Shown: positions 37,391 to 44,496 of the stretch, piece by piece
Position numbering within the stretch: the stretch's first letter is position 1
Layout: every line of letters starts with the position of its first letter
From: an uncultured Gammaproteobacteria bacterium
Lineage (GTDB): Bacteria; Patescibacteriota; Patescibacteriia; Patescibacteriales; GWE2-39-37
Reading direction: 5' to 3'
Assembly: GCA_964443495.1 (NCBI GenBank)
Contig: CAYUCS010000002.1
Location: forward strand, 324,021 to 388,020
Length of the DNA: 64,000 nucleotides
The notes under the pieces: model-generated
Database searches by the model: none
What the model was told of the DNA's origin: nothing
What the model saw: the letters and a program-made list of their open reading frames with translations, nothing else
Made by a program: the position numbers and the translations under genes

Positions 37391-39379
37391 TTATTTCAAA
37401 ATCGTAACCATTCCGTTATCCGCATCAACCTCCACCAGATCGCCGTCCTTCAGCACACTGGTCGCAATCCTGGTACCAATGACACATGGCTTCTTCAATT
37501 CACGCGCCACGATGGCGGCGTGGCAGGTGATACCGCCCTCGTCCGTAACGAAGGCCGAAGCCAATCTCATGGCTGGCAAAAAGTCCGGAGTGGTCATCGG
37601 GGTTATCAAGATATCTCCCTTTTGCACTTTAGCAAGATGCGCTTTCTCGAAAACCAGCGCCACTCGCCCTGACACTCTCCCTGGATTTGCCACCGTGCCG
37701 ATAATTTCCTTTCCGTGCTCCGCCAAATCCGCATTTTCCAAATCTATGCCATTTTCTCGACAAAACGCTTGCATATCATAATCCGTTTCCAAATTACCCC
37801 TGAAATATACATACTTTTCCTGCCTTTGCTTAAGTTCGGCGATCGCAGGCACTTTGCCTTCGATAAACTCCTCAGGCAGGACATAACCGGCCAAAGTGTC
37901 GTCACCGTCAAAGAATGAAGACTTTATCACTTTTAAAAAATACTCCTCGGCCTTATAGACGACCGTATCGTACTTCAGCCTGGTTTCATACGATGTTCTG
38001 GCTATTCCCGAGTATTTTTCCTCGACCTCCATTCCGCCTAGCACCGTACTTATAGCCAACATCGTCCAAGAGCGTGCGAGCAGTTCGAACACCTTCTTAA
38101 AATCTTCTGCACGGTCAAGGACAATGAGCCTTAATATTTCTTCACAATCATTCTCATAGTCGTTGACCAATTGAGAAAATTTTTCCTTGTTTTCTAAAAA
38201 ATACGGGAACAGCAGCTTCGGGTCTTGTTGCGGATCAGTAAAATCATAATACACGCTAACTCCCCTGCCATCTTCATGGATGAATAACGGCTCAAAAAAC
38301 ATCAATCCATCGGTCAGCTTATGGAAGCCATGACGATCGCTCAGATACCAGCATCGCATGATTGCCAGCGAAAGGGCTCGAGTCTCCATTTTCTTAAAAA
38401 AATGATTTCCTGATCCACTATCGCTGTTCTTCGTCCTGCTCAAAGTCGTGATCGGCCGCGATTGTGTAATGTAAAGCTTGCCAGCCTCGAATGCCCACTC
38501 GATGTCGCAAGGGAAGCCGTAATGCTTTTCAATATTAAGGCAGATTTGTGCCAATTCTTTAATTTCTTGATCCGGTAGCTTCTGCAGTTCTTGTTTTTCA
38601 AACTGCACTTCCTGCTCGCTCGTACCCTCAGGGCTACGAGATATCATCATGTCCTGGCTCGAGATATATTTATCTTCGATTTCCAAGCCGTCTTTTTTGA
38701 TAACATAAGAATCGGGCGTGATCATGCCGCCGACGATTGCCTCACCCAGGCCATAGCCGGCCTCGATGATCATCCGGTCGTAATCCTCGGTCACCGGATG
38801 CACGGTAAAGGCGATGCCCGAAACCTCGGACTGCACCATCTTCTGCACCACCGCCGCCACCGAGACGTGATGGTCGGCCAAACCTTTTTCGATGCGATAA
38901 AAGATCGCTCGCGGCGTGAAAAGCGATGACCAGCAGAGCTTTACAGACTCAATCAAGTTGTCAGCCGTGACATTAAGATAAGTTTCGAGCTCCCCCGCCC
39001 AAGAGGCGGCCGACGAGTCCTCGGCCGTAGCCGAAGAGCGTACCGCTACCAGCTCGGCACCTAGGTTGCCGAATCCTGTCATTATCTCGTCCTGGAGCTC
39101 CTCAGACATAGGCGCAGCCGATATCAGCTGACGGATCGATTCCGAAGCGCTCTCCACCGAAGATGATTCGTTAATGTCAACTGCCGATAATAACGCATCA
39201 ATTTTTTCTTTCAGACTAGCCTCGCTGATGAAACGGTCGAATGCATCAGCCACCACCACGAAGCCAGGCGGCACCGGCAACCCGGCTTGCGTCATCTCGC
39301 CCAAAGACGCCCCTTTGCCGCCAGCAACTGCCGCGTCATTTTTGCCGATTTCAATAAATCTCTTTATGCTAGCCATCAT
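37391..39379 (-). CDS. PPDK_N-type ATP-grasp, middle domain and C-terminal PEP-utilizer phosphohistidine swivel domain (rifampicin-phosphotransferase-like architecture, no TIM barrel)
   Basis: Start chosen at ATG 39379 (MMASIKRF), 7 nt after the upstream stop. [26 protein letters not shown] at the N-terminus. C-terminal [27 protein letters not shown]. The protein ends 42 aa after the His. Confidence 0.8.
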   Translation of the reverse strand: [662 protein letters not shown]

Positions 39380-39386
39380 ATTATAA

Positions 39387-39839
39387 TTATTTTTGAAACC
39401 TCCCCCGCTCGCCGATTTCCAAATCCTTGTCAGGGTTATATTCATTATAAAGCTCTATAAACTTATCTTCGTCAAGATACCAGCGGCCTTCGTTGAACTT
39501 ATTCTTAAAGGTCTTGACCGCTGCGTAGAATTTTTCCAAATCAGCGAACAGCCTGTCCTTTCTCAAGTTTTCCAGCTGGACTGACTGCGAATCGACGGCC
39601 GTCATAAATTCCACGACAGACATCGGTTCCTTGAGCAAATGGAGCCGCCGTTCGATCGCCTCTGGCGCGATCTTCTCGCAATACAGGTCGCCAACGGAAT
39701 AAAGTATGGCCCGAGCCTCGTTCAGATCTTCCCAGTTCGGCTGGTCCAGGATTGCTTGATACCGCCCCCAGAGGTTGGCCAATTCTTTTTCGATTCCGAC
39801 AGGGTTCAATAAGTAGGTCTGCTTCAATAGATTTATCAT
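39387..39839 (-). CDS. hypothetical protein within the swivel-domain operon
   Basis: 150-aa ORF, helical-looking, co-directional with tight spacing. No motif recognised. Confidence 0.55.
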   Translation of the reverse strand: MINLLKQTYLLNPVGIEKELANLWGRYQAILDQPNWEDLNEARAILYSVGDLYCEKIAPEAIERRLHLLKEPMSVVEFMTAVDSQSVQLENLRKDRLFADLEKFYAAVKTFKNKFNEGRWYLDEDKFIELYNEYNPDKDLEIGERGRFQK

Positions 39840-39880
39840 ATGGTTAGCTTATTATAAATTCTCCAATCGCCTGCGGTGTT

Positions 39881-43781: not shown

Positions 43782-43796
43782 TACTCCTAATTAGCC

Positions 43797-43825
43797 TTGA
43801 CAAAGCTAAAATTATATGCTATATT
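43797..43825 (+). promoter_or_regulatory. sigma-70-type promoter of the histidine phosphatase gene
   Basis: TTGACA, 17-nt spacer, TATATT. Confidence 0.55.
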
Positions 43826-43902
43826 TGCACATTACACTAAGCCCTTTAAAACCAATTGAGGCTATTACGCCTCACAAACCACCGCCAAAAAGGAGAAATA
43901 CC

Positions 43903-44496
43903 ATGGCACAAGTACTGTTGGTCAGACACGGAAAAAAAGGCAACGGTATCAAGGGTGACGGACTGGATAACGGACGCAAGAACCTCCTTTCCCCTCGCGG
44001 CGAAAAGGACGCCCTCGAACTGGGCAAGAACCTCCCGGAAGGCTTCGGGAACTGCATCAAATACGTCGGCGGTTCGGAACTCTCACGTTCGCTCCACACC
44101 GCCCTGCTCATCGCCATGAGCGCGGGCAGCGACCCCCAAGTGCTGGCTAGCGACCGGCGGCTCGGCTCGGAAGACCAGCTCTTCAATGAGTTCGGGGTGG
44201 GACTCGAAGGCTACATCAAGGCGCTCGAGGAGAACGGCAACATCGAGATCGACGCCCTGCGCCAAGTCCTGACCGCCGAGCAATACGGACTGCTTCGCGA
44301 CCAAATCGGTGATGCGGTCTGCGATGCCCTATCGTTGAAGGCGAACGTGATACTCGGCACGCACTCCCCCTGGCTGCAGCTGGCGATCGAATCGTTTTCG
44401 GGCAAGGAATTCCACGCCAACGTCAACGAGCTCGACTGGATCCTGATCGACCGCAACGACTGCGATCCGCGCATCATTGCCACAAGCCTCGACTGA
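43903..44496 (+). CDS. histidine phosphatase superfamily (branch 1, phosphoglycerate-mutase-like) protein
   Basis: 197 aa from ATG 43903, preceded by SD aaaggag. N-terminal LLVRHGKKG (RHG motif), SELSRSLHTA, and a late GTHSP His. Confidence 0.7.
   Translation: MAQVLLVRHGKKGNGIKGDGLDNGRKNLLSPRGEKDALELGKNLPEGFGNCIKYVGGSELSRSLHTALLIAMSAGSDPQVLASDRRLGSEDQLFNEFGVGLEGYIKALEENGNIEIDALRQVLTAEQYGLLRDQIGDAVCDALSLKANVILGTHSPWLQLAIESFSGKEFHANVNELDWILIDRNDCDPRIIATSLD

Follow-up and report, generated by a model that had tools for sequence, protein, structure and literature searches.

The operon and its divergent neighbour

Our analysis concerns a stretch of 64,000 nucleotides (called the window below) from contig CAYUCS010000002.1 of an uncultured bacterium that GTDB places among the Patescibacteriota (assembly GCA_964443495.1, positions 324,021 to 388,020 of the forward strand). 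It contains an operon of five minus-strand open reading frames (ORFs), labelled A, B, C, D and E in that order, and a divergent plus-strand ORF labelled F. Three of the operon proteins (A, C and E) end in the swivel-histidine domain of the phosphoenolpyruvate (PEP)-utilizing enzymes, and E alone also has an ATP-grasp domain. The operon belongs, as a small member, to a conserved type of gene array in ultra-small bacteria and archaea that seems to have gone undescribed. In such an array one ATP-binding domain apparently works for several modules resembling rifampicin (RIF) phosphotransferase (RPH), each with its own substrate pocket and phosphate-carrying His. The genes and the signals around them are listed here, with protein lengths in amino acids (aa).

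42029-43705, minus strand: A, 558 aa; XRE-type helix-turn-helix (HTH), RIF-binding-domain-like middle domain and swivel-His domain
41402-41995, minus strand: B, 197 aa; HD-domain metal-dependent phosphohydrolase family
39881-41395, minus strand: C, 504 aa; RIF-binding-domain-like substrate domain and swivel-His domain, without ATP-grasp
39387-39839, minus strand: D, 150 aa; small lineage-restricted ORF
37391-39379, minus strand: E, 662 aa; PPDK_N ATP-grasp, short middle domain and swivel-His domain
43903-44496, plus strand: F, 197 aa; RHG-motif protein resembling the histidine-phosphatase superfamily, divergent from the operon
43726-43754, minus strand: promoter-like site of the A-B-C-D-E operon; TTGACA, 17-nt spacer, TAGGAT, extended TG; 10 of 12 positions match
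43797-43825, plus strand: promoter-like site of F; TTGACA, 17-nt spacer, TATATT; 11 of 12 positions match
43760-43781, no strand: perfect 10-2-10 palindrome TTTGCCTAGT-TT-ACTAGGCAAA, between the divergent A and F promoters
37355-37380, minus strand: intrinsic terminator after E; 11-bp stem with 8 GC pairs, then a T run
44524-44545, plus strand: intrinsic terminator after F; 9-bp stem with 6 GC pairs, then TTTTTTT

That the five operon genes are co-directional and closely spaced, as a first-pass annotation of this DNA had described, is confirmed by the ORF coordinates, which give gaps of 33 nt between A and B, 6 between B and C, 41 between C and D and 7 between D and E; consensus scans likewise recovered the promoter upstream and the terminator downstream that it had placed. 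E has a second possible start, an ATG at 39445, which would give a 684-aa form overlapping D by 59 nt. The public record uses this 684-aa form, but homologues of E begin near residue 1 of the 662-aa form, favouring the shorter protein. B is given as 178 aa in the public record, and its homologues are about 197-200 aa long. Searches of NCBIfam returned partial matches only (PEP synthase, RPH and PigC/RedH), all far under the curated cutoffs, so that none of the proteins is a named equivalog. A PADLOC scan of the operon proteins for known anti-phage defence gave a 14-bit HTH match in A and nothing else.

Swivel-histidine modules of the RPH type

The three large proteins had been proposed to end in a PEP-utilizer swivel-His domain and to lack the TIM barrel of the classical enzymes, and both proposals were borne out. 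The PEP-utilizers profile (PF00391) matches A at residues 478-549 (E-value 4e-26), C at 429-496 (E-value 2e-22) and protein E at 586-656 (E-value 1e-25), and the motif GGI[TA]CHAAIV is found in all three, with its His 45, 42 and 42 residues from the C-terminus, respectively. The TIM-barrel profile PEP-utilizers_C (PF02896) has no match in any of the six proteins at E-values up to 0.1. The PPDK_N domain (PF01326) occurs in E alone among the operon proteins (residues 18-319, E-value 4e-102) and is missing from A and C, again as predicted, and the N-terminus of A (residues 7-67) matches HTH_26 and HTH_3 (E-value 5e-13 for HTH_26).

A and C are 25% identical across about 450 residues (BLASTP, E-value 3e-32), whereas the BLASTP alignment of either protein with E is confined to the swivel domain. 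By profile comparison, residues 481-662 of E align with residues 323-504 of C, which corresponds to the swivel domain plus about 75 residues before it. The suggestion that some 200 residues preceding the swivel are common to all three proteins thus holds for the A and C pair, but for E it has to be reduced to these 75 or so.

The AlphaFold2 model of C (pLDDT 91.2) finds RPH structures as its best Foldseek matches (5FBU, 5FBT and 5HV1; E-value 3e-13, query TM-score 0.58-0.60). The RPH match spans the RIF-binding and swivel domains, and every other match covers the swivel only. The model of E (pLDDT 87.8) matches RPH 5HV1 along its length (E-value 1e-36), and its grasp domain resembles the ATP domain of RPH 5HV6 (target TM-score 0.92, 37% identity) and HpeI 9GOJ (36% identity). 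The middle domain of E, at about 230 aa, is some 200 residues shorter than that of RPH; against the RPH equivalog NF041857, E scores 338.8 bits where the cutoff is 999, and A and C match the C-terminal end of this profile only. An RPH-like architecture had been suggested from the sequence, and RPH is indeed the best match of both models; E is, as modelled, an RPH-like single chain. The middle domain of A is predicted to be a homologue of the RIF-binding domain by virtue of its homology to C.

The second phosphotransfer of RPH requires Arg666 and Glu667, which lie in a network with Lys670 (PMC4844700). In an alignment of the C-family profile with RPH, D307 is opposite E667 and K310 opposite K670, the Arg being displaced to R309. 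The corresponding stretch of C reads W305-I-D307-R-R309-K310; across the C family, R309 and K310 never vary and D307 hardly does, and A has W-R-E-H-R-K-K where alignment via C puts R666-E667 to K670 of RPH. With an RPH-like fold seen in the model of C and predicted for A, and a second-site motif that appears to be kept in both, A and C look like catalytically competent components made of a substrate domain and a swivel domain, without an ATP site.

C has many full-length homologues, about 40% identical to it, across Patescibacteria and DPANN archaea. Full-length, HTH-bearing orthologues of A are present in four of the loci that we collected from other genomes (L013, L032, L081 and L085), and an HTH-fused module is also found in L087. 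A stand-alone E-type protein of 658 aa, 50% identical to E, is encoded at 9802-11977 of L082 with no other swivel genes nearby; a 65-aa XRE HTH gene lies one base upstream of it.

Arrays in Patescibacteria and DPANN archaea

For a census of such genes, 79 loci were fetched from species-representative genomes and the operon domains were mapped onto them; loci added later are included, so that the census covers all. Loci were chosen by similarity to C and by swivel motifs, and taxon labels were taken from the records of metagenome-assembled genomes (MAGs), a few of which are possibly mis-binned. The closest named relatives come from Falkowbacteria and other Patescibacteria MAGs.

Swivel-ending genes in Patescibacteria and DPANN genomes form co-directional tandem arrays. 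There are 38 arrays with at least three swivel domains (range 3-10), and 212 of the 214 array swivel domains lie on the majority strand. The neighbourhood, whose conservation in related genomes had been put forward as a check, is therefore conserved far beyond close relatives. An ATP-grasp domain occurs exactly once in 21 of the 38 arrays and is missing from the other 17, and no array has two or more. Most of the grasp-less arrays sit in truncated loci; where the fetched DNA extends past the array by more than 4 kb in each direction (n = 11), seven arrays have one grasp and four have none. In most arrays the grasp sits at one end, encoded by a gene of its own (304-344 aa).

In other cases grasp and modules are fused. 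A Woesearchaeota MAG (L031, JAFGGS010000004.1) encodes at 6242-17527 a single ORF of 3,761 aa, with one PPDK_N grasp followed by eight modules of middle domain plus swivel, and smaller one-grasp fusions are found in L041 (2,019 aa, four swivels), L063 (1,399 aa, three swivels) and L044 (1,154 aa, two swivels). Among the best homologues of E, many reach 1000-1150 aa; in P0132, the one that was examined, an E-type protein is joined to a C-type module. A 1,994-aa ORF in L005 is a smaller version of the L031 polyprotein. We considered whether the giant ORFs could be an artefact of the genetic code and rejected this, since a table-11 ORF without any stop codon cannot come from codon reassignment.

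Across bacteria and archaea, the array swivels are 39-68% and the array grasps 38-74% identical to those of E, whereas the array middle domains are mostly undetectable by BLAST, a combination that fits a shared docking partner and differing substrates. The best match of a module lies in another genome, and not in its own array, in 131 of 139 cases, and the modules are, on this sequence comparison, old, conserved paralogues. A recent origin by tandem duplication, as in an arms-race diversification, was rejected because modules match other genomes above their own array. The operon of L081 has an extra short-module swivel gene of 342 aa (8968-9996) between D and E, which suggests that modules are gained or lost between close relatives.

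A probable module-derived regulator and its candidate operator

The palindrome between the A and F promoters is unique in the window, where 0.06 matches would be expected by chance. L081, whose E protein (P0122) is 75% identical to E, has a counterpart, TTTGACTAGT-NN-ACTAGTCAAA, in which a symmetric double change keeps the palindrome. A degenerate copy, TTGACTAGT-AA-AGTAGTCAG, was found by eye and with a repeat finder directly upstream of the HTH-module gene of L085; a pattern search for the exact operator over the other loci returned L081 only. We regard the palindrome at 43760-43781 as a candidate operator for the HTH of A.

The A orthologue of L085 (5162-6817; 32% identity, full length) has DKLSPS in place of GGITCH and has thereby lost the catalytic His, and it still has the HTH and the W-R-E..K-K motif. 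It is on these grounds probably a pseudo-enzyme regulator. This orthologue without a swivel His but with an HTH, together with the conserved palindrome, leads us to read A as a module-derived transcription sensor, whose phospho-acceptor His is intact in this window. A would thus probably be both regulator or sensor of the operon and phospho-acceptor module; its possible role as a regulator was absent from the first-pass annotation.

Accessory proteins

B matches the HD profile (PF01966) weakly (E-value 1.8e-4, 22.2 bits against a cutoff of 22), and an HD match is present in all 30 of the 30 aligned members of its family (best E-value 9e-10), the invariant residues of which include H31, H60-D61, H64, H88, H120-D121 and H143-D144. 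The family is narrow and Patescibacteria-specific, with 52-63% identity apart from the closest relatives, and a sequence search of the Protein Data Bank with the HD family profile gave no meaningful match. B homologues lie inside swivel arrays in L002, L026, L032, L085, L086 and L087; when contexts were sampled from HD homologues, independently of C, three of three were inside swivel arrays (L085, L086 and L087).

F carries R8-H9-G10, R62 and a GTH motif and scores under the His_Phos_1 (PF00300) cutoff (19.1 against 21.7 bits, E-value 1.1e-3). Its comparison with the array-associated RHG family A3 gives, beside this sub-threshold Pfam match, an hhalign probability of 92% (E-value 5e-7), and the A3 profile matches SixA-like (3F2I, 4HBZ) and PhoE-type structures. 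The N-terminal RHG...R core of SixA-type phosphohistidine phosphatases is common to F and the array RHG proteins, but the likeness to SixA is weak, as F falls under the Pfam cutoff and PhoE-type phosphatases and phosphoglycerate mutases match the RHG family about equally well. De novo clustering of the non-swivel array ORFs identified RHG histidine-phosphatase-like genes as the commonest array accessory. Such a gene is contained in or adjoins 12 of the 35 array loci, compared with 1-2 of the 38 loci with a single gene, a contrast that is partly circular because the hidden Markov model (HMM) was made from array-derived sequences; RHG proteins also occur in arrays L084 to L087. A divergent F-type gene stands beside the HTH-module gene in L081 and L085 as well, and the order in L085 is that of the window, with a divergent His_Phos gene, the HTH-module gene and further modules with an HD gene among them. 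A tblastn search over 80 loci found no relatives of F or D, and F-like proteins surfaced only after the accessory ORFs of the arrays had been clustered de novo and their profiles compared. D has no Pfam, NCBIfam or PADLOC match, and no relatives outside its own lineage were found, even by jackhmmer; it is shared only with L001 and L081, from the same or a closely related organism.

The HD and RHG proteins had been named as candidate reset or turnover enzymes. Both do recur with the arrays, and it is this association from which a reset role is suggested.

Genes of other kinds are also seen near the arrays. Phosphotransacetylase genes (PTA_PTB, E-value 5e-88) lie in or beside arrays in L009 (17803-18777), L010 (6789-7793), L012 (1917-2891), L006 and L011, on contigs mostly labelled DPANN, and the L009 copy is directly upstream of the ATP-grasp gene. 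Acyltransferase-like genes with hexapeptide repeats (LbH; 284-381 aa) recur in L009, L010, L011, L023 and L024, and the phosphotransacetylase and acyltransferase-like neighbours hint at acyl-phosphate chemistry. In L011 and L037, several genes for S-adenosylmethionine (SAM)-dependent methyltransferases recur beside swivel arrays (e.g. L037, 7894-8838; L011, 4840-6147), as does another gene, which encodes about 420-435 aa. Three loci, L019, L033 and L063, have HAD hydrolases of about 200 aa in common, and an MBL-fold hydrolase follows the array in L086.

Likeness to known systems

The nearest described parallels are PpsAB, CreHI and HpeHI, two-component homologues of RPH in which a separate ATP-grasp protein charges a partner made of a RIF-binding-like domain (RD) and a swivel domain through a transient complex (PMC12167813). 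HpeHI (Rhodococcus), the phenylphosphate synthase PpsAB (Thauera) and CreHI (Corynebacterium) resemble the operon in having, like A and C, a chain with an RD-like and a swivel domain, a grasp located elsewhere and no TIM barrel, and the stand-alone grasp genes of the arrays resemble HpeI and PpsB in being separate. They differ in being one-to-one pairs with a stand-alone grasp, whereas the grasp of the operon shares a chain with one module and has two further modules beside it. They also sit in aromatic-catabolism clusters. Among the relatives of the operon, one grasp occurs with up to 10 modules; the accessory genes differ too (here HD, RHG phosphatase-like and an HTH-fused module), and the hosts here are Patescibacteria and DPANN archaea. 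The matches of the A1 profile to solved chains end at RPH and PEP synthases, and HpeH has no structure to compare.

RPH itself (e.g. RPH-Lm; 5FBS, 5FBT, 5FBU and 5HV1) follows the same logic of an ATP-grasp, a helical substrate domain and a C-terminal swivel His, and an R/E..K-like second-site motif also appears to be kept in the C family. RPH is, however, a single chain of about 865 aa, while A and C are without a grasp and the middle domain of E is shorter, and rifamycin substrates are unsupported here. PEP synthase and pyruvate phosphate dikinase (PPDK) have the PPDK_N grasp and the swivel His in common with the operon, and it is these two parts of PEP synthase that give the best NCBIfam matches. 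Unlike these enzymes and Enzyme I, which have the PF02896 TIM barrel, the operon proteins lack it and have their His domain at the C-terminus rather than in the centre.

A one-to-many phosphotransfer model and its alternatives

On balance, we lean towards reading the operon as a branched, hub-and-spoke small-molecule dikinase of the RPH type. The chemistry of this model is taken from RPH, PpsAB and HpeHI, and its one-to-many wiring from the array census and the fusions. ATP would be bound by the grasp domain of E, and the swivel His would attack its beta-phosphate, giving a diphosphorylated His (His-PP) and AMP, after which the gamma-phosphate would be hydrolysed. The phosphohistidine (His-P) domain would then swing to the RIF-binding-domain-like pocket of its own module, where a small molecule would receive the beta-phosphate. 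E would act in cis on its own short module and would charge in trans the swivels of A and C, two proteins lacking an ATP-binding domain, with each module type having its own substrate. Binding of the XRE HTH of A to the inter-promoter palindrome would let ligand or phosphorylation state govern how the operon and F are expressed, and B and F would be phosphohydrolases acting on something common to all modules, either the phospho-His intermediate or a shared class of phospho-products. From what is observed here, namely domain composition, fold homology, a conserved array architecture and fusions, we infer all functional statements that go further, including that E charges A and C in trans, that the substrates are small molecules and what A, B and F do. 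The idea of a split or branched phosphotransfer system was already raised in the first-pass annotation; its architectural side is strengthened by the finding that there is never more than one grasp per array and that fusions of a grasp with several swivels are frequent, whereas trans-phosphorylation is something that we infer.

Several points weigh against this model. Its functional claims derive from the comparison of domains, folds and arrays, and the selection of loci via similarity to C or swivel motifs biases the array frequency upward. The middle domain of E is covered only by the whole-chain alignment to RPH. Encoded side by side, a kinase and phosphatases would appear to run a futile cycle, except where the phosphatases have an enzyme intermediate or another position as their target. 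Further points of this kind suggest that the proteins could be independent of each other, with E a complete, cis-only RPH-like kinase and A and C either ATP-independent phosphotransferases or exchangers, or else dependent for charging on a donor from another locus. E-type proteins can also stand by themselves, as in L082 where only a small HTH gene precedes the E-type gene, so that E is possibly self-contained and its grasp need not serve A and C; for 17 of the 38 arrays the fetched DNA includes no grasp gene, so that the grasp partner is possibly encoded elsewhere or not needed; and ATP-independent roles are possible for A and C because HpeH alone moves phosphate from 4-phosphoacetophenone to acetovanillone without ATP (PMC12167813). 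We nevertheless find independence rather unlikely, since 21 of the 38 arrays have exactly one grasp and none has more, one-grasp fusions with two to eight modules are frequent, the swivel domains are conserved as strongly as the grasp domain, and no other phospho-donor domain (such as a TIM barrel or HPr) is seen in the operon with Pfam or NCBIfam.

We give little credence to the explanation that A and C are mainly sensory or regulatory, with ligand-sensing middle domains and a swivel His that is regulatory rather than catalytic, forming a signalling device around the single enzyme E. It would account for the position of A, which with its HTH heads the operon beside a conserved palindrome, for the L085 orthologue that is without the swivel His but retains the HTH and the RD motif, and for the other HTH-fused module in L087, but it sits poorly with the absence of an output domain from C and most array modules, with the acid/Arg/Lys phosphotransfer motif that is invariant or nearly so in the C family, and with the presence of up to 10 modules per array, hard to explain as sensors without outputs. 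The pathway could also run in the PPDK direction, with phosphate passing from phospho-compounds through the swivel His onto the grasp, where AMP would be turned back into ATP as a form of energy harvesting in fermentative symbionts. The PPDK reaction is reportedly reversible and a source of ATP in bacteria and protozoa (PMC5371819), and phosphotransacetylase genes lie in or beside several DPANN-labelled arrays, adjoining the grasp gene in L009. As the closest relatives (RPH, HpeI and PEP synthase) run in the ATP-consuming, water-dikinase direction and no phosphotransacetylase gene was noted beside the operon in the window, we think this very improbable. Least probable in our estimation is that the modules phosphorylate macromolecules such as proteins or glycans, for which glucan water dikinase and VadK provide parallels: swivel-His dikinases reportedly act on starch (PMC13553574) and a kinase derived from PPDK reportedly takes part in regulation in M. 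tuberculosis (PMC13400623), but the middle domains here match the small-molecule-binding domain of RPH, and no carbohydrate-binding or protein-interaction domains were detected with Pfam.

Implications

The principle of a split grasp is already known from PpsAB, CreHI and HpeHI, and it is the one-to-many arrangement that appears new. Full-text literature searches, with incomplete coverage, found no report of one-grasp multi-module arrays, of their polyprotein forms, of the accessory set of HD and RHG proteins, of an HTH-fused sensor module or of a distribution over the candidate phyla radiation (CPR) and DPANN; the NAD-ADPr paper of Iyer and Aravind proved to have no bearing on them. The initial impression that the arrangement is unlike any described system is therefore to be narrowed, as the split principle had been described (PMC12167813), and retained for the arrays, of which the literature searched holds no description. 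Such genes have so far been annotated only as 'PEP-utilizing enzyme' or 'PEP synthase'. A survey of the CPR resistome only counts rph-like matches, and counts of 'PEP synthase' or 'rph' in metabolic and resistome surveys of the CPR (e.g. PMC8651080) may be inflated by modules of the kind described here.

CPR and DPANN genomes are very small, yet some of them give 10-15 kb to these arrays, which suggests an important function. If one grasp does serve many acceptors, the mechanism of the swivel-domain dikinases would be extended from one-to-one to one-to-many, and the conserved, distinct substrate-binding modules would have ligands that could show what uncultivated symbionts scavenge or neutralise. 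The HTH-fused module and its palindromic candidate operator offer a tractable way into finding such ligands. We also entertain, tentatively and with more doubt than conviction, a broader view in which a dedicated system of 'phosphoryl distribution' is common to Patescibacteria and DPANN archaea: one grasp hub would charge up to ten modules, sometimes within one polyprotein of about 3,800 aa, with its own HD and RHG phosphohydrolases (some of the RHG proteins being SixA-sized) and a module-derived transcription sensor, and would constitute a major unrecognised route by which these ultra-small symbionts trap, activate or detoxify many small molecules of host or environment.

Other features of the region

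The GC content of the operon region (38001-44000) is 0.475-0.491, with values of 0.50-0.51 in the flank on one side and 0.56 on the other; acquisition by transfer could be the cause of the lower value. On the far side of F, beyond a PBP1A gene, lies a 380-aa ORF (46799-47941) that belongs to no Pfam family, and its position is kept in the relative L081 (333-1475).

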